DNA from: Candidatus Zixiibacteriota bacterium
GTDB lineage: Bacteria; Zixibacteria; MSB-5A5; GN15; JAAZOE01
Direction of reading: 5' to 3'
Assembly: GCA_043819555.1 (NCBI GenBank)
Contig: JBDREQ010000003.1
Span: 96,001 to 160,000, forward strand
DNA: 64,000 bases
The notes below the pieces were generated by a model. That model searched no databases. It was not told where the DNA came from and was given only the letters and a program-made list of their open reading frames with translations. The position numbers and the translations under genes are program-made. Positions 900 to 64,000 of this stretch are shown here, in pieces. Within the stretch, counting starts at the first letter, position 1; each line of letters starts with the position of its first letter.

Positions 900-1526
900 C
901 TATTTAATGGCATCAATCACGAATGAAACACCAATATAAAGCAAAAACAAGGCGCATATGCTTATTAAAATATAGTATGGTTTTCCGGCCAGAAGTTTTT
1001 TCCCGGCGGCGATTAAAAACGAGACAAAACTATACCAAACCAGATCCGATAATATATGCCCAAAATAAAAGACGATGGGACCGGCGATTCCGTGTGAAAG
1101 AGATTTGCTCATCAAAGCCGACCCGACTGTCGCCCACCAGACAAACCAATAGGGATTTGACAGCGACGCGGTAATGCCCTTGCCGACCAGAAGCCCTGAA
1201 CTTGAACCGGGTTTATTTGCGTCAAACGAAATTTTCTTTCGGATGATATCGTACATCATCATCCCGCCCATTAATATCAGCGCTATTCCACCCAGAAGTC
1301 CTATGATTTTGAAGGCCGTTGCTGATGAGAATAACTCGAGAAGTCCAAATGCGAGAGCAAACACTACTGCCAACTCGGCGATAGCGTGGCCAATAATCAG
1401 AATCGGACCCGACCAGAATCCTTTGCGAGTCGCTTCGGCAATATTAACGGTCAGAAGTGGCCCCGGCATTAACGCCCCGGAAAACCCAATCCCAAATGAC
1501 ATAAAAAACAACGCGATTAAACTCAT
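900..1526 (-). CDS. LysE family translocator
   Basis: N-terminal GFSGALMPGP, SLSNPYWFVWW motif, about 6 TM helices. Confidence 0.85.
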   Translation of the reverse strand: MSLIALFFMSFGIGFSGALMPGPLLTVNIAEATRKGFWSGPILIIGHAIAELAVVFALAFGLLELFSSATAFKIIGLLGGIALILMGGMMMYDIIRKKISFDANKPGSSSGLLVGKGITASLSNPYWFVWWATVGSALMSKSLSHGIAGPIVFYFGHILSDLVWYSFVSFLIAAGKKLLAGKPYYILISICALFLLYIGVSFVIDAIK

Positions 1527-1600
1527 GGGAAGAATATACGAAAGAAATCAACGGGCAGTAAACAGGAAATGTCGGGGTGTGACCTGACGGTCTTTATAAT

Positions 1601-3139
1601 TTATTCGGAATAATAATCCAAAAGCTCATCCAAAAGGCCGTCGATGTTCTGGACTTTGGCCTCGCGAGTAACGCTCACGCCATCAGATTCGAGGACTTTG
1701 CTAGCCTTGGGGCCTATGGAAAAAACTTTGGCGTTTTGAATAATATCATCCGCTTCCTCTTTGGATAAATTATGATACAATCCCTTCATTGTCGAACCGG
1801 ATGTAAACAAAATCGCATCGGGAGGATATTCCAGTAACTTTTCCTTTAGCCCATCCGGCCAGGTGGGATAATAAGTTTCATAAGTCGTAAGTGGCAAAAC
1901 TTCCGCGCCCAATCCGGGAAAAGCCTTCTCAATTAACTCGTCGGCCAGATTCCCTCGAACTCGAACTACGGTGGTGTCATTCAAATCAATCGCCTTCGGC
2001 ATCTCATCGACTAATATATTTACCGTTGCTATCGAAGGCATAAAATCGATTGGCAGACGATATTCTTTTAATAAACCTGAAGTACCCTCTCCAATAGCGG
2101 CAATCTTAAATCCTGCCAGCGTTCGAATATCATCGAATTTCTCGGTAAACTTATCCATAAAATATCGCACGCCGTTTTCGCTGGTAAAAATCAGCCATTT
2201 ATCATCGTTTTGAATATATGAAAAATCCGCCCAGCCCTTTTCATCGTCAACCGCCCGCGTCGCGATTGTCGGATATGGCAGAGGTTCGGCGCCCAGTTCA
2301 CGCAATCGGCGATACAAATCCCCGGCCTGCACCGACGCTCGCGTCACCATAACCCGCAAACCAGGAAGAGGACGGCCAGTAAACCATTTCAGATATGGTT
2401 GGAGATCGACGACTCCGCCCAGAACAAACAATGCCGGAGGCTTAACATTTTCGTTTTTAACGATTCCGGGCAAATCTTTCAAAGTTGCCGTAAATACTCG
2501 CTGTGACGGAAAAGTCCCCCGTTCGATAATCGCCGCCGACATATCAGGATTCATGCCATTCTCAATCAATTGCTCAGTGATATTCGAAATCTCATTGACG
2601 CCCATATAAATCACGACCGTGCCGTTTTTGATTTTGGCAACCCAGTCCCAGGGAACGGTTGATTTCAATTTGTCACTGGATTTATGGCCGGTCAAAAACA
2701 AAACCGATGAAGCGCGCTCGCGGTCGGTGCAGGGAATACCGGCATAGGCCGGCCCGGCAATTCCCGAGGTGACGCCGGTAATGATTTCAAATTCAACGCC
2801 ATGCTCTTTGAGATACTTAGCTTCTTCGCCGCCCCGGCCAAATATCAAAGGATCGCTGCCTTTGAGTCTCGCTACCGATTTTCCCTCTCGAGCCAGCTTG
2901 AGCAGAAGCTCGTTAATTTTCTCCTGAGGAACCGGATGATCCCCTGCCTTTTTGCCGACATAATATTTCTCAGTCTCTTCGGGAATATTGATGATAAACT
3001 CGGGACAAACCAAATTGTCGTACAATACCGCGTCGCAACTACAAAGTAGTTCCTTGCCGCGGACGGTAATCAATCCGGGATCGCCGGGGCCCGCGCCAAT
3101 CAAATATACTTTTCCGGTTTTGCCCATAGGCATTATCAA
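1601..3139 (-). CDS. cobA: Uroporphyrinogen-III C-methyltransferase / uroporphyrinogen-III synthase fusion (CobA-HemD)
   Basis: VYLIGAGPGDPGLITVRG, RLKGSDPLIFGRGGEE; C-terminal HemD domain (VMVTRA, IFTSENGV, SIGP). Confidence 0.93.
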   Translation of the reverse strand: MIMPMGKTGKVYLIGAGPGDPGLITVRGKELLCSCDAVLYDNLVCPEFIINIPEETEKYYVGKKAGDHPVPQEKINELLLKLAREGKSVARLKGSDPLIFGRGGEEAKYLKEHGVEFEIITGVTSGIAGPAYAGIPCTDRERASSVLFLTGHKSSDKLKSTVPWDWVAKIKNGTVVIYMGVNEISNITEQLIENGMNPDMSAAIIERGTFPSQRVFTATLKDLPGIVKNENVKPPALFVLGGVVDLQPYLKWFTGRPLPGLRVMVTRASVQAGDLYRRLRELGAEPLPYPTIATRAVDDEKGWADFSYIQNDDKWLIFTSENGVRYFMDKFTEKFDDIRTLAGFKIAAIGEGTSGLLKEYRLPIDFMPSIATVNILVDEMPKAIDLNDTTVVRVRGNLADELIEKAFPGLGAEVLPLTTYETYYPTWPDGLKEKLLEYPPDAILFTSGSTMKGLYHNLSKEEADDIIQNAKVFSIGPKASKVLESDGVSVTREAKVQNIDGLLDELLDYYSE

Positions 3140-3855
3140 TCATCTCCGCCGAATTCCAGAGTCACCGGTCCAGCACCGGGATCCTCATGATTTTTATCTT
3201 CCGGTTCTTCGTCTTCGACCGGTTCCAAAAGCTTATCCAATTCGTTTTCGAGGTCGGCATCATTTTTATTTTTTATCAATGTCTTCCAGTCGGCGCTCAG
3301 AAATCTGTCAAGACTGGCAAACCGTTCTTTGGTATCATTACCCCACTTAACATGAACTTTTTTGCGGAAGTCCGCGGCCAATTGCATGATGCGCGACCAG
3401 TGATTGGGAAAGATATTTTCCATAATAAGGCGCAGATGCGCCGCCAGAAAAGGAGCCTTACCATCGGTTGATACCGCTACTGTCAGGGCATCGCGTTTGA
3501 CCATAGCCGGAAAAATAAAATCGCACAGAGGTGGATTATCAACGACATTCACCAGCGTTTTTCCCTCCCGGCAATCATCATATACACCCCGGTTAACCGC
3601 TTCGTCATCTGATGCCGCGACAACCATGCCGTAATTCGAAGCCTCCGGAGATTCATATGTTCTATTGTGAAGCTTCAGCTTCCCTTTGGATGCGTAATAT
3701 CCAATTTTATCGAGCGGCTCTGGTGCAACAACTGTGATATCGGCTTCAAAATCCATGAGAAGCTCAATCTTCCTCAAAGCCACTTTGCCCCCGCCGACAA
3801 CCAAAAACGGGCGCGATTTCAATGTTATATTTATCGGAAAATATTTATTAGCCAT
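3136..3855 (-). CDS. sirC: Precorrin-2 dehydrogenase / sirohydrochlorin ferrochelatase (CysG N-terminal-like)
   Basis: LVVGGGKVALRK, VNVVDNPPLCDFIFPA, AVSTDGKAP; ATG at 3855 chosen for its GGAG RBS. Confidence 0.9.
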   Translation of the reverse strand: MANKYFPINITLKSRPFLVVGGGKVALRKIELLMDFEADITVVAPEPLDKIGYYASKGKLKLHNRTYESPEASNYGMVVAASDDEAVNRGVYDDCREGKTLVNVVDNPPLCDFIFPAMVKRDALTVAVSTDGKAPFLAAHLRLIMENIFPNHWSRIMQLAADFRKKVHVKWGNDTKERFASLDRFLSADWKTLIKNKNDADLENELDKLLEPVEDEEPEDKNHEDPGAGPVTLEFGGDD

Positions 3856-58250: not shown

Positions 58251-58939
58251 TAAAGTTTTTCCTGCCTTTTGTTTTTTTGGAGTATCTTGTTTCGCTGGTC
58301 AGTTTTACATGATTGCCTGATAGCCAAGAGTCTGTTCACTTCTGAATCCGTTAAATAGTCAATATCTCCCAACTGCCGGGAAAGATATAATATTTTTGAA
58401 TTATGTTCAACTACTTCGAGCAGATTAAGCGCCGATTCTAAATTTTCGCCGAAACAAACCAACCCATGGTTTTTCAATATAATTGCGTCGCATTCTTCAA
58501 TAAACGGAGAAAGAGATAGAGCAAGGTCATCTGTTCCGGGAGTCGCATATGGGGCCACCGGGATCTTGCCCGCCGAAATAACGGTTTCAGGCAAAATGTA
58601 ATTGTGATCCGATAATCCGGCGACTGAGAGCGCGGCAGTAAATGGCGGATGGGCATGAATGCAGGCATTAATATCACCTCGATTATTATATGCAAAAAGA
58701 TGCATTCTATATTCCGAGGAGGGTTTTTGTTTTCCTGAAATTTGATCTCCAACTAAATTAAGAGTGACCATATCTTCGAAATCAAGTAATTCTTTTCTTT
58801 TTCCGGAGGAAGTAATCATTATATTTTTCGATTCTAACCGCACAGAAATATTTCCTTCGCATGCAACAATTAGCCCCTTTTCATATAGAATACGTCCGAT
58901 ATTGGCGATTTTTTCGAATGCGAGCGATAATATTGACAT
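58250..58939 (-). CDS. Class II aldolase/adducin family protein
   Basis: EGNISVR, PSSEYRMH, IHAHP, LKNHG. Confidence 0.9.
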   Translation of the reverse strand: MSILSLAFEKIANIGRILYEKGLIVACEGNISVRLESKNIMITSSGKRKELLDFEDMVTLNLVGDQISGKQKPSSEYRMHLFAYNNRGDINACIHAHPPFTAALSVAGLSDHNYILPETVISAGKIPVAPYATPGTDDLALSLSPFIEECDAIILKNHGLVCFGENLESALNLLEVVEHNSKILYLSRQLGDIDYLTDSEVNRLLAIRQSCKTDQRNKILQKNKRQEKL

Positions 58940-59042
58940 AAAACTCCCAAGCTTTACACATTTAAATAACCCATTATACTACTGAAAGTCAAGCGATTAT
59001 ATGAATTTGGGGAGCTGCAATACCCATTGTCCTAAATCAATG

Positions 59043-59169
59043 GGCAGATTAGGCGGAAAAAACGTCAAGAAAATAAGGCAGAAATTGCGTCGCATAATCT
59101 GCGAATTGATAAAAAATACTTGACAAGCCATTTGTCAAATAGTAAGTTACAGGTGAGCATAATCTGCGA
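59043..59169 (+). promoter_or_regulatory. Sigma70 promoter flanked by repeated GCA-N5-TGC operators
   Basis: TTGACA(59120)-17nt-TAAGTT(59143); GCATAATCTGCGA at 59092 and 59157; an inverted variant at 59043. Confidence 0.65.
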
Positions 59170-59241
59170 GAATCTACATTGAGTTTAGTCATTGTTCTTT
59201 ATTTTGATAATATAGTTATACCAATTTAGGAGGAAGGTACC

Positions 59242-59553
59242 ATGAAGGTATCAAAGATGACTCGGATACTGTCTTTTGTATTCTTGTTGTTTGCATTCTT
59301 GGTTTTTTATCCCGGAGTCACCAAAGGTGAACACCCTTGGGAAGAAAATAATTTTAATTCTGGAGGCCCAATGGTTAAGCCACCGCTCGTTATTGTAGAT
59401 TCGTTATTAACGGAAGAAATCGACCCAGATGAACCGGATCCGGGTGATGATCCGCCGGTGGTAGAAGGAACATCAACTACAGGTAATTGGTGGGATAGTC
59501 TTTGGGATTGGATGACAGGCAGTTCGGCTGGCAATAATCCGTCAGCAAGTTGA
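59242..59553 (+). CDS. Small secreted acidic protein / putative propeptide
   Basis: Strong AGGAGG RBS; Sec signal ending TKG; mature part starts EHPWEE; Pro/Asp-rich; WWDSLWDW. Confidence 0.75.
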   Translation: MKVSKMTRILSFVFLLFAFLVFYPGVTKGEHPWEENNFNSGGPMVKPPLVIVDSLLTEEIDPDEPDPGDDPPVVEGTSTTGNWWDSLWDWMTGSSAGNNPSAS

Positions 59554-59619
59554 TAGACATGCGCACATTTTAATTTAATGTGTAGAGTCTATTTGAACTA
59601 ACTTCAAGAGGATGCAAAA

Positions 59620-62553
59620 ATGGACAGTACCTCACAACATACGGCAAGTCTAAGCCCAAGGCTGTTAGAAATTGAGAGTCTATTCAAACAGCAAAAAACA
59701 AGGCAGGCATTGTCGGCGTTGGAAAAGCTGGCTCAGGTTGAATATTCACCTGAGGGCTTGGATTTGGGGCTATATTCTTTATTGCTGGCAGAGCGCGATT
59801 TTTGCGACAGCGATTATCAAGCAATGCTTAAAAAATGTCGGGTGGCGTTAGATGAACTAGGTAGAACTAATCTCAACAATAGAATTGGCAGAATTCAGTA
59901 TTTGGTTTATTTGGCTCATTCATCGCTTGGTGATCTAAAAGCCGCCGAACAGGCATCGCGCGATTCTCTGGCTTCGTATCGGCGGGTAAACGATAATGCC
60001 GGTATTATTGATGCCTATAATGCCTTGGGCAAGATTTATTTTATCCGATCCGACTATGGTACAGCGGCAGAATATGTCAATGAGGCAATCAATTACTCGC
60101 CTCCGGATTCAAAGAAAGCGGTACAGCTATTAGGAAATCTTGGGAGAATTTATCTATTAACTGGAGATTTGGATAAGGCCCAGGAAAATCTTGAAAAATC
60201 ACTAAATATGGCCAAAAAGTTGGAACTGGTTTCGTCCATTGTTTCGAAACAACTATCATTGGGCTATCTACATATAAGGAGAAGGCATTTTTATCAGGCC
60301 GGAATTGAATTAACCGAGGCGGATAACTTAATTCGCGAATTTGGTTTTCAGAGAGAGAGGGTTATTTCGCTTGAATATCAAGGCGAATTATGCTTCGAGA
60401 AACAGGATTTCGTGGCCGCCAAGAATTACTTAGAAGAAGCGATTTCGATGGCCAATGAATTGGCTCCGCAGTCTTCGTTGATGAGTCAGTGTTTACGTCG
60501 TTTGGCTGAAACGGAATTGGAACTGGGGAATGGTGATTTGGCGATGCGTCACGCACAAAAGGCCTTAAATTTAGCAAAAGAGATTGGTGAAAAGGCTGAA
60601 ATTGGAATGTCTCATCGGGTAATTTCCGCTGTATTCTTATCGCGCAATGAAACCGCAGATGCCAGGCGGCACAGTTCAATGAGTATCGATATTTTGCGCG
60701 AGGTTGGTGATAACTTTGAATTAGGCCGTTCGATTATTCAATATGGCGCCATTCCGCTGGCGGGAGTGAGTATCAGCGACCGCAAGTCGATTCCGTTATT
60801 GCGTGAAGCGGAGAAGATTTTTACGGTTCTCGGCGATGATTATTATGTTTCGCGGTGCCGCTTTGAGCTGGGAAGTTTATGCCACCATTTGGGAAAAAAC
60901 GGTGAGGCGCTTGAGTATTTAAACCTATCTTATGAAGGATTTCGCAATGTCGGTGATAAATCAAGGGCGAAAACCGTAAGCGATTTTCTGGATTCATTAT
61001 CTAGGAACGCCGTTAAAAAAGCGCTTTCAAATAAGAATGAATTCAAAATATTTAGTAATCTTATTTCCGGTTCAGAATTTGAGAATATAAAAAACGATCA
61101 ATTGGAAAATTTGCTTGAAATATTATGTCGAAAAATCTCTGTTGACCGCGGTTTGATTATTGATTTATTCGAAAACTGTAATCCTCAGATAAGCGCCGCA
61201 TACGGATTGGAAGAATCAGATTTTGAATCGGTAATATCAGGATTTTCGGAACTTATGGAAGAGGACCTCATCACTGACGAACCAATTTTGATTTTGGACG
61301 GATCCAATGGAGCCGAGTTTATGGAATTGGTTCCGTTACGGGAAAATGATATTTCCTGTTTGATTGTTTTGCCGCTGACATTTGCCTCAAAAGTAATTGG
61401 TTATATATATCTTGATCGATTGAGTCAATCGCCGGGAAAAGGTATCAATCCGTTTAGTCAAAATGATATTAACTTTGCAGTCGGGTTTGCTGATTTGGTT
61501 GCGTTTAAAACGACGGATTTGCAGAAAGAGAAGCTGTTGGCAGATAATTTACGTCTGAAGGCTCAGTTATTGGAATCCTGTACGTTCCCAAATATTATTA
61601 CTCAATCGCGATTGTTTATGGAGATATTAGTACGCGTTCAGCAGGTGGCGAATTCCAATATGGCCATTTCCATCACGGGAGAAACCGGAACGGGGAAGGA
61701 TTTATTGGCCAAAGCTATACATTATAATTCGTCCCGACGCGATAAACGATTTATATCAGTCAATTGCGCGGCATTGCCGGAATCTCTTTTAGAGTCGGAG
61801 TTGTTCGGGTATAAAAAGGGAGCGTTTACCGGTGCAGATCGCGATAAACCCGGCCTGTTCGAAGAGGCTGACGGCGGCACATTTTTCTTAGATGAAATTG
61901 CCGATATGCCTTTATCACTTCAAGCCAAAGTGTTGCGCCTTTTGGAGAATATGGAAATTACCCGCCTGGGAGATACGCATCCGCGAAAGGTTGATGTCCG
62001 GGTGATTTCGGCGACGAATAAGGATTTAAAAAAGGAGATGGATCTTAGGCATTTCCGGAGTGATTTATATTATCGATTATGTGCTTTGCATTTTTCCATT
62101 CCAGCCTTGCGTGATCGCAAGGAAGATATTCCTGTTTTGGCAGAGCATTTTCTTGATGGCGGTAATTGCCAGATTATGCCGGATGCGATGAAATACCTAA
62201 TTGATTATGATTGGCCGGGGAATGTTCGAGAACTTGAGAACGAAATCAAAAAAACGGTACTTTTGGCTAACAATGAGGGGCCAATAACTGCCGCTCTGTT
62301 ATCGCGGAGAATTCTTGGTGAGGATCAGATTAATGTAATGAGTATTCCGAACGAAGAGGCATATTTTACCGAGGGCATCTTTTCGCTATATGACTATATT
62401 GCTGAATTTGAGAAGCGATTTATTGTCAAGGCCTTAAAAGAGCAACGTGGGATTAAAAAGCGGGCGGCTGATTCTCTGAAAATACCGGAATCAACGCTGC
62501 GTTTAAAGCTGAAACAATATGATATCGACCCAAAGAGGATTGATATAAATTAG
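59620..62553 (+). CDS. Sigma54 enhancer-binding protein with TPR array, GAF, AAA+ and Fis-HTH
   Basis: About 450 aa of TPR repeats; GYIYLD GAF; GETGTGKD, ESELFGYKKGAFTGA, FLDEI, WPGNVRELEN, C-terminal HTH. Confidence 0.92.
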   Translation: MDSTSQHTASLSPRLLEIESLFKQQKTRQALSALEKLAQVEYSPEGLDLGLYSLLLAERDFCDSDYQAMLKKCRVALDELGRTNLNNRIGRIQYLVYLAHSSLGDLKAAEQASRDSLASYRRVNDNAGIIDAYNALGKIYFIRSDYGTAAEYVNEAINYSPPDSKKAVQLLGNLGRIYLLTGDLDKAQENLEKSLNMAKKLELVSSIVSKQLSLGYLHIRRRHFYQAGIELTEADNLIREFGFQRERVISLEYQGELCFEKQDFVAAKNYLEEAISMANELAPQSSLMSQCLRRLAETELELGNGDLAMRHAQKALNLAKEIGEKAEIGMSHRVISAVFLSRNETADARRHSSMSIDILREVGDNFELGRSIIQYGAIPLAGVSISDRKSIPLLREAEKIFTVLGDDYYVSRCRFELGSLCHHLGKNGEALEYLNLSYEGFRNVGDKSRAKTVSDFLDSLSRNAVKKALSNKNEFKIFSNLISGSEFENIKNDQLENLLEILCRKISVDRGLIIDLFENCNPQISAAYGLEESDFESVISGFSELMEEDLITDEPILILDGSNGAEFMELVPLRENDISCLIVLPLTFASKVIGYIYLDRLSQSPGKGINPFSQNDINFAVGFADLVAFKTTDLQKEKLLADNLRLKAQLLESCTFPNIITQSRLFMEILVRVQQVANSNMAISITGETGTGKDLLAKAIHYNSSRRDKRFISVNCAALPESLLESELFGYKKGAFTGADRDKPGLFEEADGGTFFLDEIADMPLSLQAKVLRLLENMEITRLGDTHPRKVDVRVISATNKDLKKEMDLRHFRSDLYYRLCALHFSIPALRDRKEDIPVLAEHFLDGGNCQIMPDAMKYLIDYDWPGNVRELENEIKKTVLLANNEGPITAALLSRRILGEDQINVMSIPNEEAYFTEGIFSLYDYIAEFEKRFIVKALKEQRGIKKRAADSLKIPESTLRLKLKQYDIDPKRIDIN

Positions 62554-62579
62554 ATTGAGATTTGATAAATAATAAATAA

Positions 62580-62615
62580 AAAAGGGGCCCGTCAAAATTC
62601 CGGCGGGTTTTTTTT
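62580..62615 (+). terminator. Intrinsic terminator
   Basis: CCCGTC...GGCGGG followed by a T-tract. Confidence 0.6.
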
Positions 62616-62659
62616 GAATCTATCAGTCTGGAAAAATCTATGAAGGGCCAGGAGTAATC

Positions 62660-64000
62660 GTGAAGAATTTATATTGCGTTTTTTTTATAGTAATTTTTAC
62701 GTTTTCCTTATCTCTTGGAGACGATTTATATAAAGTTAAATTGAGAAATCAGGCCGATGCGGAATATATGAATTCATCAGAAGTCGTATCAATAGCCGTA
62801 CTTTCCCGGGGCTATTTGATTATTGCTGATAAATTGCAATCCGCCGCTTTGGAATCCCAAGGCATAGAAATATCGTTGATTGAAAGTGATGTTGAAATCG
62901 ACAGACTGGTTTTTGACATGCGGTACGATAAAAAGGGTTATGGCGTAGATGATGTTGTGTTTGAGGAAGAGGGAATTTGCATCTTGCGTCGAGATGTGAA
63001 CGAGAAATCGATTACAGGCAATGAATTTGATTTTATGCCGATTTCGCAAGCGGATTTGGTTTTTACATATATTGAAAGCGTTGAGATCAATAAAGATAAG
63101 TTATTATTTCCTCCCGGACTCGATGATTTAATAGATTCGGTAAGCAGCTCAAGATTATTTGCAGTTACGCGGAATCTCCAAAATTTGGGAGAACGAGTCG
63201 CCGGTTCGGCGGGTAGTGTTGATGCTCAGGCGTTGCTTTTGGAAAGATTGGATTCCTTTGGGTATGATTCGTTATATCTGGATGAATTTACGGCTTATAT
63301 ACAGGGAGGCAATAAATCCTGCCGCAATGTCATTGCTGTCAAGCCGGGCATTGTAATGCCTGAAGCCAAAATAATCATCGGCGCTCACTACGATGCCGTT
63401 CCCGGTTCTCCGGGAGCCGATGATAATGGATCGGGGACATCGGCGGTTATAGAACTGGCAAAAATATTTAAGAATATTGAGACGAATATAACGTTTATTT
63501 TTGCCCTTTTTGATGCTGAGGAATGGGGTTTGTATGGGTCTCATCATTACGCGAGTAATGCATACGCTAATGGCGAGGCAATTGTATTTATGATTAATCT
63601 TGATATGATTGGCGCTAAGAATAATGATGAAGACATGGTCAGGATTTATCATGGGGATGATTTGAAATATATCAATGTTATTCAGCAACTGGCGGATTCA
63701 TTATTAAATTTTGAAGCTTCAATGGCGGGTACTTCATCCCGCTCTGATCATTATAGTTTTCAATCCCTGGATTATGACGTATCATTTTTCCAGGAATGGG
63801 AGTTTTCGGAAGTTTATCATACTTCAAGTGATAATACCAATCAAATGGATTTTGGGTATATGGCGCAATTAGTGAAGATCGCTTTGGCGACGGCCTATAC
63901 GGTAGATCGTTTGGCATCGCCGAATCGGTCAGTGTCGGTTACGTATCCTAAGGGGTTGCCATTATCGTTTGTAGCGGATGAGTTGTCTTCGTTTGATATT
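62660..64000 (+). CDS. Secreted M28 family metallopeptidase (partial, runs off window edge)
   Basis: Not in the ORF track. GTG with AGGAG RBS, signal peptide; IIGAHYD, GADDNGSG, DAEEWGLYGS, NLDMIG, SDH, YHT. Confidence 0.88.
   Translation, partial: MKNLYCVFFIVIFTFSLSLGDDLYKVKLRNQADAEYMNSSEVVSIAVLSRGYLIIADKLQSAALESQGIEISLIESDVEIDRLVFDMRYDKKGYGVDDVVFEEEGICILRRDVNEKSITGNEFDFMPISQADLVFTYIESVEINKDKLLFPPGLDDLIDSVSSSRLFAVTRNLQNLGERVAGSAGSVDAQALLLERLDSFGYDSLYLDEFTAYIQGGNKSCRNVIAVKPGIVMPEAKIIIGAHYDAVPGSPGADDNGSGTSAVIELAKIFKNIETNITFIFALFDAEEWGLYGSHHYASNAYANGEAIVFMINLDMIGAKNNDEDMVRIYHGDDLKYINVIQQLADSLLNFEASMAGTSSRSDHYSFQSLDYDVSFFQEWEFSEVYHTSSDNTNQMDFGYMAQLVKIALATAYTVDRLASPNRSVSVTYPKGLPLSFVADELSSFDI

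Follow-up and report, generated by a model that had tools for sequence, protein, structure and literature searches.

A conserved pair of a small signal-peptide ORF and a TPR-containing sigma-54 activator gene in Zixibacteria, and its possible place in a signalling circuit

In a 64,000-nt stretch of the genome of a Candidatus Zixiibacteriota bacterium (the window), the gene for a small protein with an HPW motif and the gene for a sigma-54 activator with a TPR sensor form a conserved unit on the plus strand (59242–62553). The pair is conserved, the motif is predicted to dock in the TPR groove, and a palindrome of the pair's promoter recurs at a single-copy small RNA locus. On these grounds the two genes are read as ligand and receptor in a three-part circuit of HPW signal, TPR activator and small RNA, a reading to which we give a slightly better than even chance.

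The two genes and their conservation

The HPW small-protein gene (59242–59553, plus strand) encodes 103 amino acids from an ATG start, as read from the ORF translation, and the ribosome-binding site AGGAGG lies 8 nt ahead of the ATG (59228–59233, plus strand). GGAGG-type sites also precede the start codons of the small ORF in those related loci that were inspected. The N-terminus reads MKVSKMTR, followed by an uncharged stretch of 14 residues and by PGVTKG, with EHPWEENN directly behind. By simple sequence criteria residues 1–29 (59242–59328) form a predicted signal peptide; a K/R-bearing n-region is present in 31 of 31 members of the small-protein family and an uncharged stretch of at least 14 residues in 30. 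The W-acidic motif EHPWEENN (residues 30–37, 59329–59352), identified from the translation and the homolog alignment, is separated by a Pro/Asp-rich linker from a Trp-rich amphipathic segment, WWDSLWDWM (residues 83–91, 59488–59514). The first-pass annotation had described a 103-aa ORF with a strong ribosome-binding site, a Sec signal with a mature N-terminus EHPWEE, a Pro/Asp linker and a WWDSLWDW motif. Start and ribosome-binding site were confirmed, the Sec signal was upheld by the simple criteria, and the linker and WWDSLWDW (residues 83–90) are read in the translation. The small protein also has a conserved C-terminal hydrophobic segment, to which the ligand–receptor model gives no role.

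An alignment of 31 homologs of the small protein has just two invariant positions, P32 and W33; E30 is kept in at least 90%. The context of the Pro-Trp pair is acidic (E-H-P-W-D/E): counted over nine residues starting at the motif, the net charge is −2 or more negative in 25 of the 31 sequences. The conserved HPW-type motif anticipated earlier is borne out, with Pro-Trp as its only invariant part. It follows the predicted signal peptide directly in families f1–f5 and f9, and lies 10–35 residues past it in distant families and in paralogs. Pfam assigned no family to the 103-aa protein, the ESM Atlas gave no usable match, and a single-protein search returned just two close homologs plus a truncated call of the protein itself; the family became visible through synteny alone. 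Public annotation has the small ORF begin at residue 44 and so omits both signal peptide and motif, which partly explains why such pairs escape notice.

After a gap of 66 nt follows the activator gene (59620–62553, plus strand; 977 aa), with the domain order TPR-GAF-AAA+-HTH. According to Pfam and the homolog alignment, the TPR sensor domain spans residues 1–480 (59620–61059), in which Pfam recognized only generic TPR families (TPR_12 in four stretches) and TPR_MalT. It is followed by a GAF domain (residues 495–628, 61102–61503; PF01590, E 7.5e-7), the AAA+ sigma-54 interaction domain Sigma54_activat (residues 659–824, 61594–62091; PF00158, E 1.5e-67) and a Fis-type HTH_8 DNA-binding domain (residues 927–967, 62398–62520; PF02954, E 5.7e-10). 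AAA_lid_14 is also present, and the GAFTGA loop and a Walker A motif (GETGTGKD) are readable in the translation. A Pfam search of the activator revealed no receiver domain (Response_reg), and no histidine kinase was found nearby, either by Pfam on five proteins or in the translations of flanking ORFs. These coordinates and domains confirm the earlier description of a 977-aa enhancer-binding protein with TPR and GAF input and no REC domain 66 bp downstream of the small gene; for the proteins and translations covered, the claim that no kinase is nearby held as well. The same genome encodes RpoN (contig C57; PF04552, E 2.2e-57), so that an AAA+ domain with GAFTGA, a C-terminal HTH and sigma-54 itself, the marks of a bacterial enhancer-binding protein, are all present. 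About 17 sigma-54 activators are encoded in this genome. In enhancer-binding proteins of the NifA/FhlA type, a GAF domain directly precedes the AAA+ sigma-54 module and a Fis-type HTH lies at the C-terminus. The activator has the same GAF-AAA+-Fis-type HTH order and differs from this type by the 480-residue TPR array ahead of the GAF domain and by its dedicated small exported partner gene. In a groundwater metatranscriptome run, a single 218-nt contig matched 60056–60268, inside the activator gene, with 100% identity; it is uninformative on transcription units and starts.

The first-pass annotation had proposed to ask whether a signal-peptide ORF always lies upstream of homologous activators. 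In families f1, f3 and f4 all 30 of the 30 related loci have, immediately ahead of the activator gene and in the same orientation, a small ORF with a signal peptide and [DE]-x-P-W; the gaps measure 3–106 nt. Such an ORF was likewise present at five of five distant orthologs (families f5, f9, f13, f14 and f20) and at four of five paralog loci. A second cassette of the same genome, on contig C9, also has the upstream small ORF, and as many as five paralogous cassettes, each encoding an HPW protein of its own, occur in a genome. Of the 285 genomes of the phylum, 279 contain the TPR part of the activator. At one locus (L062), a signal-like segment, the sequence GHPHGD and the TPR activator are read as one 893-aa frame; this frame, whose motif is without Trp, may have arisen from faulty assembly of a GC-rich genome.

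The genes around the pair are less constant. On the same strand the activator gene is followed by a gene for a secreted M28 peptidase (62660–64000, continuing past the end of the window; full length 943 aa, PF04389, E 1.8e-38) and then by a gene for a 945-aa paralog. The M28 peptidase had been counted earlier as the third member of the module, a view that did not survive the comparison of loci: an M28 gene comes after the activator in no more than 4 of the 20 regions compared, those of the own genome and of three relatives, which together represent two genera of one family. Elsewhere the activator is followed by a lipoate-ligase-like gene, a TonB-dependent receptor, a PorV/FadL-like gene plus a lipoprotein, or others. 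The M28 peptidase is thus a neighbour outside the conserved unit. As a separate candidate we considered the TonB-dependent receptor, PorV-like gene and lipoprotein, which lie downstream in 9 of 20 regions; they have their own TTGAC-type promoter and were rejected for want of a link to the circuit. An OPT oligopeptide transporter is encoded by 270 of the 285 genomes, among them members of families that lack the cassette, and hence gives no linkage signal. A search for SBP_bac_5 yielded one weak match.

Predicted docking of the HPW motif

Co-folding, as proposed in the first-pass annotation, placed residues 30–39 of the small protein (EHPWEENNFN) in the TPR groove of the activator, and of the small protein only these residues take part in the interface. 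The ipSAE was 0.81, the median of three runs (0.78, 0.82 and 0.81), against 0.01 for the best of three controls. The runs share at least 40% of their contacts, and the pLDDT of the partner is 38–41. The calibration mark of the method, reached by 116 of 157 solved complexes against 2 of 215 mismatched pairs, fits only roughly here because our own alignments were used. The TPR residues predicted to touch the motif are invariant (N134, N173, L212, S213, I249, E252 and Q290) or near-invariant (R176 and R245). Some of the groove varies together with the motif. In three HPWQ paralogs R176 is replaced by Q, Q and T, and at those loci of family f3 that have D or N in place of the motif His, L180 is R or Y. 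These changes come from few, related lineages and may therefore be single events. The model thus predicts that the HPW motif docks in the concave TPR groove of the activator.

A comparison of the TPR profile with PDB sequences gave LGN/Pins at E 8e-20 and kinesin-light-chain TPRs at E 5e-13 to 1e-8, while RapJ (4gyo), a receptor of the RRNPP group, reached only E 1.6e-5. By sequence the TPR part therefore resembles RRNPP receptors less than it does the LGN/kinesin-light-chain type. Kinesin light chains hold a Trp flanked by Asp/Glu in a concave TPR groove, as described in passages of PMC6214655. The predicted HPW complex resembles this arrangement: the TPR subtype is the same by sequence as that of PDB 3zfw, and a Trp with flanking Asp/Glu in a disordered chain would lie in a concave groove, with Asn residues of the groove touching the peptide in the model. 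Similarity to the solved kinesin-light-chain/W-acidic complexes may in part inflate the co-fold score. The two cases differ in that the HPW receptor is a transcription factor and kinesin light chain a eukaryotic motor adaptor; moreover, unlike the W-acidic cargo motifs, HPW has Pro before Trp, and His or Asp/Asn before Pro.

Promoter, operators and a candidate output RNA

Upstream of the pair lies a predicted operator of two abutting CGCA-N5-TGCG palindromes (59077–59103, listed without strand), recognized from the sequence and a palindrome scan: GGCAGAAATTGCG (59077–59089) with one mismatch and CGCATAATCTGCG (59091–59103), which is exact. It is followed by a predicted sigma-70-type promoter (59120–59148, plus strand) that comprises TTGACA (59120–59125), a spacer of 17 nt and TAAGTT (59143–59148). 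The −35 hexamer sits within the perfect palindrome TTGACAAGCCATTTGTCAA (59120–59138) and occurs at the equivalent position in 31 of 31 related loci and in nine of nine distant or paralog loci. TAAGTT is a weak −10 hexamer compared with the E. coli consensus, and a simple promoter scan did not list it; we infer the promoter function of this segment from its conservation. A downstream operator, AGCATAATCTGCG (59156–59168, likewise without strand), has one mismatch to the palindrome and lies at or just past the predicted transcription start. The geometry of these elements is nearly fixed. The upstream palindrome ends 16–18 nt before the −35 hexamer in 30 of 31 related loci and 26 nt before it in the remaining one; the downstream palindrome is absent from L015, and in the other 30 of the 31 loci it begins 28–31 nt past the −35 hexamer. 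In all 31 loci CGCA-N5-TGCG flanks the sigma-70-type promoter of the pair, and the Fis-type HTH_8 of the activator is its presumptive reader.

The two-gene unit is closed by a predicted intrinsic terminator with hairpin and U-run (about 62580–62615, plus strand). Its fold of −16.9 kcal/mol (z −2.9) supports the terminator that the first-pass annotation had placed ahead of the M28 gene, although it was absent from the output of a simple terminator scan. A hairpin between the two genes (59563–59583) was no better than shuffles (z −1.56), and Rfam gave no credible family match in 58800–64000 of the window. No conserved −24/−12 element was detected near the cassette, either in 260 nt upstream on the plus strand or in 600 nt upstream on the minus strand, nor in the 2.2 kb downstream of it or in the whole 17-kb regions.

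Such an element is found at another locus that shares the palindrome. Exact CGCA-N5-TGCG sites are not enriched in the genome (32 against 28.5 expected), and paired sites alone are informative; in non-coding DNA they occur at three loci only, namely the promoter of the pair, a locus on contig C14 and one on contig C7. On C14 two sites are followed by the sigma-54-type promoter GGCATG-N4-TTGT, about 220 and 100 nt further downstream, and then by a terminator-ended small RNA of 88 nt (C14:27743–27831). The RNA is 96% identical across five genera, against 66–80% for the flanking genes, and 11 of 12 pairs of its terminator show compensatory changes. Of the 151 genomes of the class, 94 carry it, each as a single copy. 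The layout of sites, promoter and RNA is repeated in 19 of 20 loci from families f2–f4 and, with at least one exact site, in six of six loci from f5, f9, f10 and f20. The −12 element of the RNA promoter is TTG(T/A) as compared with the canonical TTGC, and the TTGT of this locus explains why a genome-wide scan for canonical promoters missed it. That scan, for GC at −12 with upstream palindromes, produced three candidates, all of which lie inside long open frames and were judged to be due to chance.

All genomes that carry the RNA come from families that have the activator. No copy was found in families f6, f16, f17 and f18 (0 of 25 genomes) or in f7, f8, f11, f13, f14 and f15 (0 of 27 genomes), the latter being families with TPR-activator homologs. 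Rfam offered no credible match at the C14, C7 and C9 loci, and for the RNA of locus L083 none at E up to 1, Qrr included. We conclude that this small RNA, with its sigma-54-type promoter and the operator palindrome, is a likely output of the activator.

Proposed circuit and its relation to known systems

According to our model, the sigma-70-type promoter bracketed by the CGCA-N5-TGCG operators would transcribe the small gene and the activator gene jointly. The small protein would be exported via its Sec signal peptide, leaving EHPW(D/E)(D/E)N at the mature N-terminus in this lineage, and the motif would bind the concave TPR groove, most probably after its release and re-import as a peptide. 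Occupancy of the TPR domain would be relayed via the GAF domain to the AAA+ ring; the Fis-type HTH would then bind CGCA-N5-TGCG and switch on the sigma-54-type promoter of the 88-nt small RNA, and the activator would also feed back on its own promoter. Export, processing and uptake of the small protein, the sign of the response and the assignment of the palindromes to the TPR activator rather than to another regulator are the inferred parts of this scheme. A point against it is the compartment problem, a cytoplasmic sensor being paired with a ligand that has a signal peptide. The stronger version, in which Zixibacteria would practise true peptide cell–cell signalling across two membranes, with a re-imported EHPW-acidic peptide, a TPR/sigma-54 read-out and a Qrr-like RNA, is tentative, and we put it at somewhat less than an even chance.

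The compartment problem disappears if the activator captures the precursor in the cytoplasm, before export, by the fit of its HPW motif in the TPR domain, and thereby gauges Sec clearance of a dedicated substrate. Secretion-coupled regulators of comparable logic are FlgM/sigma-28 and the TPR chaperone–coactivator pairs of type III secretion. The predicted docking is equally valid for a precursor, a signal peptide is conserved among the 31 homologs with the motif directly behind it in f1–f5 and f9, and the fused frame at L062, if real, puts motif and sensor in one compartment. That frame may be an artefact, though, and lacks the Trp; in distant families and paralogs the motif lies 10–35 residues past the signal peptide, and as many as five paralogous cassettes per genome with their own HPW proteins fit specific signals better. 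Overall we regard the sensing of secretion state as rather unlikely. The two products might also have no physical link at all, the exported protein being merely co-transcribed as a product of the regulation or an unrelated envelope protein, and the docking a false positive derived from known TPR/W-acidic complexes. A co-fold tool can pass on likeness to solved complexes, the TPR resembles kinesin light chains by sequence, and the partner pLDDT is low. This explanation is nevertheless improbable: the pairing persists throughout the phylum and in paralogs while neighbours change, the docked residues include the sole invariant ones of the small protein and the TPR residues touched are the invariant ones of the sensor, and all three controls remained at or below 0.01.

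That the palindromes at cassette and RNA locus are read by another DNA-binding protein, with the sigma-54 target of the activator lying elsewhere, is unlikely in our estimation. The genome has some 17 sigma-54 activators to choose from, and the RNA is unlinked to the cassette both here (C14 against C3) and in most relatives. On the other hand, the distances of the sites from the sigma-54-type promoter are typical of activator sites, the same motif brackets the activator's own promoter with fixed spacing in 30–31 of 31 loci, the RNA is confined to activator-bearing families, with none in f6, f16, f17 and f18, and near the cassette there is no further conserved sigma-54 promoter. The module of the first-pass annotation, in which the adjacent secreted M28 aminopeptidase would mature the exported pro-protein to the active peptide, we consider very improbable. 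The gene does adjoin the pair on the same strand in the window and carries a predicted signal peptide, but a terminator separates it from the activator gene, its association with the activator is limited to two genera of one family, and an aminopeptidase would trim a motif that is already at the mature N-terminus.

The preferred circuit of HPW signal, TPR activator and small RNA invites comparison with the RRNPP(A) pairs of Bacillota (Rap-Phr, NprR-NprX, PlcR-PapR and AimR-AimP), described in PMC10075063. As there, a small signal-peptide ORF adjoins the gene of a cytoplasmic TPR receptor, paralogous pairs occur in one genome, and the ligand is a short linear motif predicted to lie in the receptor groove. 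In contrast to those systems, the host of the HPW pair is a diderm of an uncultured phylum, and the output consists of GAF, AAA+ sigma-54 and Fis-type HTH modules instead of an XRE HTH or a phosphatase/anti-activator surface. The first-pass suggestion of an RRNPP-analogous module wired to sigma-54 in a diderm thus stands as regards the pairing, the motif and the predicted docking, but not for the M28 peptidase; with a TPR domain nearer to LGN and kinesin light chain by sequence, the resemblance to RRNPP is probably one in the mode of working and not in descent.

On the output side the nearest parallel is the Vibrio LuxO/sigma-54/Qrr system (bioRxiv 10.1101/2021.07.01.450815). As there, the main output of the sigma-54 activator would be a short, conserved, terminator-ended regulatory RNA with a sigma-54 promoter and upstream activator sites. 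Unlike LuxO, the TPR activator has neither a receiver domain nor a phosphorelay, its input being a TPR-GAF module; and in contrast to the four or five Qrr RNAs of Vibrio, the C14 RNA is single-copy and without a match to Qrr or any other family in Rfam.

PMC10075063 treats genetically encoded peptide signals that act on cytoplasmic TPR receptors as a hallmark of Gram-positives and of the mobile elements they carry. A literature search found no published account of a cassette of an HPW small protein and a TPR activator. No paper on Zixibacteria together with sigma-54 was found, and the papers listed for Zixibacteria and quorum sensing were off-topic by title or abstract; on enhancer-binding proteins the search led to a PEP-CTERM paper and to a sigma-54 regulon survey, whose matching passages mention no TPR activator, Zixibacteria or small RNA. 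Together, the pair and the small RNA appear to make up a hitherto undescribed signalling circuit of a bacterium with two membranes. It offers concrete handles, namely the ligand EHPWEENN, the pocket N134/N173/R176/S213/I249/E252, the operator CGCA-N5-TGCG and the output RNA, all of which are approachable in vitro or in E. coli without culturing the organism. If the model is true, the logic of TPR receptor and peptide would extend to a diderm, uncultured phylum, wired to sigma-54 and a small RNA; in its stronger version, RRNPP-style input and LuxO/Qrr-style output would be joined in one core, phylum-wide circuit with paralogous private channels.

The small HPW protein, its activator and their neighbours

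The ORF list of the window (G000:C3:96001–160000; G000 is the own genome) places a 103-aa frame at 59242–59553 (plus strand), with AGGAGG located 8 nt 5′ of its ATG. Its translation starts with MKVSKMTR and an uncharged stretch, followed by PGVTKG|EHPWEENN, a Pro/Asp-rich linker and WWDSLWDW. No Pfam family matched this protein, and its closest homolog is in a record named as a candidate division Zixibacteria genome. The public gene call starts at residue 44 (60 aa) and therefore misses both signal peptide and HPW motif. For two relatives, complete calls of 101–103 aa exist. Across 31 aligned small proteins, P32 and W33 are the only invariant residues, and E30 is conserved in at least 90%. Apart from these positions, the proteins consist of the signal peptide, a linker rich in Gly, Asp and Pro, a segment of hydrophobic and aromatic residues, and a variable tail. 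A K/R-bearing n-region was found in 31/31 proteins and an uncharged stretch of at least 14 residues in 30/31.

The activator (977 aa, 59620–62553, plus strand) begins 66 nt 3′ of the small ORF. Pfam assigned TPR_12 and TPR_MalT repeats to residues ~65–480, GAF to 495–628, Sigma54_activat to 659–824 (E 1.5e-67) and HTH_8 to 927–967, with AAA_lid_14 between the latter two. GAFTGA is readable in the translation, and the Pfam scan revealed no receiver domain. The ORF list and Pfam agree with the first-pass annotation of a signal-peptide ORF with a strong ribosome binding site, followed after 66 nt by a TPR-GAF-sigma54 activator without REC. Expression data consisted of a single 218-nt metatranscriptome contig, which lies within the activator gene.

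With residues 1–480 of the activator, its TPR part, as query, matches were obtained in 279/285 genomes of the phylum (E up to 1e-5). These fall into three groups: full-length frames of ~980 aa in the four families belonging to the same order (E <1e-68 in nearly all genomes, a few weaker), matches of E ~1e-40 to 1e-60 in most of the other families, and, for families f6, f16, f17 and f18, nothing beyond weak matches. The first-pass annotation had predicted an upstream signal-peptide ORF with an HPW-type motif beside homologous activators, and this held widely. At 30/30 loci returned by the TPR search, a small ORF (88–124 aa) of the same orientation lies directly 5′, separated from the activator gene by 3–106 nt; each product has [DE]-x-P-W behind a signal-like N-terminal segment. 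In five genomes, one from each of five distant families, the small ORF was present at 5/5 orthologous and 4/5 paralog loci. The remaining paralog locus (L062, G277:C20, oriented 1003–3684) combines a signal-like segment, a GHPHGD motif variant and a TPR activator in one stop-free 893-aa frame; either a natural fusion or, the genome being GC-rich, an assembly artefact could account for this.

Behind a hairpin with a U-run (~62580–62615, plus strand; −16.9 kcal/mol), the M28 peptidase gene assigned by Pfam runs on the plus strand from 62660 past the window end, in agreement with the layout first described. The complete peptidase has 943 aa, and a 945-aa paralog adjoins 3′ (L003:661–6361). Both tandem secreted peptidases carry long C-terminal extensions ending in paired GDANGD..VNVGDAV repeats, which we take to be dockerin-like in appearance. 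We compared 20 regions of 14–19 kb, one from the own genome and the others from 19 relatives. The activator is followed by an M28 gene in no more than 4/20 regions (own genome, G001, G011 and G002; two genera), and the peptidase, proposed earlier as a member of the module, is therefore a local neighbour outside the conserved unit. A TonB-dependent receptor is located downstream instead in nine regions from families f1, f3, f5, f9 and f20 (loci L068, L072–L076, L078, L080 and L081), most of which also contain a lipoate-protein-ligase-like gene, a PorV/FadL-like barrel gene and a large lipoprotein. The receptor (CarboxypepD_reg and Plug domains) has a TTGAC-type promoter of its own; L078 has only receptor and lipoprotein of this cluster, and in the own genome the cluster is not next to the activator.

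Predicted docking of the HPW motif

As suggested in the first-pass annotation, the TPR domain was co-folded with the mature small protein (residues 30–103), using alignments A3 (26 rows) and A2, respectively, and the model places the HPW motif in the TPR groove. Scores were 0.78, 0.82 and 0.81 compared with 0.01 for the best of three controls. The runs share at least 40% of contacts, with a partner pLDDT of 38–41. The calibration mark is reached by 116/157 solved complexes and 2/215 mismatched pairs, figures that transfer only roughly to this pair because our own alignments were used. The confident partner interface is restricted to residues 30–39 (EHPWEENNFN), which in the model contact TPR residues 22–27, 58–61, 94–98, 131–141, 165–180, 205–216, 245–252 and 285–291 along the groove. 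Invariant columns in this predicted interface are N134, N173, L212, S213, I249, E252 and Q290, and in a table of 42 cassettes interface positions are constant in the paralogs as well. The three paralogs with HPWQ have Q, Q and T in place of R176, and f3 loci with D or N instead of His have R or Y in place of L180. These substitutions weakly hint at change in step with the motif, as only a small number of related lineages carry them.

In sequence comparison, LGN/Pins (E 8e-20 to 1e-16) and kinesin light chains (5e-13 to 1e-8) gave the best matches to the TPR profile; RapJ matched at 1.6e-5 only. PMC6214655 describes a concave groove between TPR2 and TPR3 of kinesin light chains that binds 'W-acidic' motifs (Trp flanked by Asp/Glu), a close analogue of the modelled HPW docking. 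This likeness calls for caution, since the co-fold model may partly be recalling kinesin-light-chain/W-acidic structures.

Shared promoter sites and a conserved small RNA

TTGACA precedes the small gene at 31/31 loci and also at 9/9 distant or paralog loci. Allowing at most one mismatch, a CGCA-N5-TGCG site ends 16–18 nt before TTGACA at 30/31 loci, and a further site starts 28–31 nt after it at 30/31. In the window, the sites are at 59077–59089, 59091–59103 and 59156–59168, TTGACA at 59120–59125 and TAAGTT at 59143–59148. No conserved sigma-54 promoter was found on either side of the cassette. From these sequences we read the cassette promoter as sigma-70-type, bracketed by putative operators. 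The −35 hexamer itself lies within a perfect 7-5-7 palindrome, TTGACAAGCCATTTGTCAA (59120–59138), which could serve as an additional site for a DNA-binding protein. Relatives from f1 and f4 retain TTGACAA-N5-TTGaTAa of it.

Genome-wide, the exact palindrome is not enriched (32 sites vs 28.5 expected). Paired non-coding palindromes occur at only three loci of the own genome: the cassette promoter, C14:27485 and 27606, and C7:16118 and 16170. In a DNA search against five relatives, a ~100-nt stretch of the C14 region is 92–95% identical, compared with 66–80% for the flanking genes. The alignment shows two palindromes followed by GGCA(C/T)-N6-TTG(T/A) and an 88-nt RNA (C14:27743–27831). This RNA is conserved at 96% identity among five genera, and a hairpin with a U-run forms its 3′ end. 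Its fold has −32.6 kcal/mol (z −5.8), the terminator shows compensatory changes in 11/12 pairs (29-row alignment), and no Rfam family corresponds to it.

A covariance model detected exactly one copy in 96/121 genomes of the order, and a broader model, applied to genomes at least 90% complete, one copy in 94/151 genomes of the class (f1 5/5, f2 2/2, f3 40/41, f4 10/10, f5 16/17, f9 5/5, f10 4/4, f20 10/11, f19 1/3). The broader model returned 0/25 in f6, f16, f17 and f18, families without a strong activator match, and 0/27 in f7, f8, f11, f13, f14 and f15, which have TPR-activator homologs. Upstream of the RNA in f2–f4, a −24/−12 element is present in 20/20 regions and an exact palindrome 138–150 nt 5′ in 19/20; among f5, f9, f10 and f20 regions, 6/6 have at least one exact site and 5/6 have two. 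The RNA is mostly unlinked to the cassette (195 kb apart in G002, 6.6 kb in G185).

Directly after the RNA, a weaker partial second copy with ACTGAGGTGGG and a hairpin is located at G000:C14:27837–27905 (L083:938–1006); the RNA model scored it at E 0.004 in the own genome and ~3e-4 in G002 and G011. At the C7 locus (L084, G000:C7:15921–16182, minus strand), the two exact sites are followed ~95 nt further on by an RNA-like element (16032 to 15921) that is conserved in G001, G011 and G009. Its promoter reads GGCAyG-N4-TTTG in G011 and G009 and TTGCAC-16 nt-TATATT in the own genome and G001. We consider the element a candidate second regulated small RNA.

A second cassette of the own genome, outside the window (L085, G000:C9:126226–129744), comprises an ORF of 121 aa, with a signal peptide and DEHPWGDEN, and the gene for a 752-aa TPR sigma-54 activator that starts 2 nt further on; CGCA palindromes are absent. 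After this activator lie a terminator and a sigma-54 promoter, AGGCACAAACCTTGCT at C9:129037, then ~95 nt with a GC-rich hairpin at their end (129121–129141) and a gene for a 170-aa exported protein.

A possible peptide-responsive circuit

One operator motif is thus common to the activator's own promoter and the region 5′ of the sigma-54-type RNA promoter. The simplest reading of the sequences is that the TPR activator would bind CGCA-N5-TGCG. This layout resembles the Vibrio LuxO/sigma-54/Qrr RNA system (bioRxiv 10.1101/2021.07.01.450815). A search of open-access full text and bioRxiv found no published description of the cassette.

Two routes could bring the HPW motif to the cytoplasmic TPR sensor. 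The sensor might capture the precursor in the cytoplasm before export, or a released HPW peptide might be re-imported. An OPT transporter is present in the own genome; being ubiquitous in the phylum, it is uninformative for re-import. Since paralogous private pairs exist, we favour re-import over precursor capture, though not strongly.
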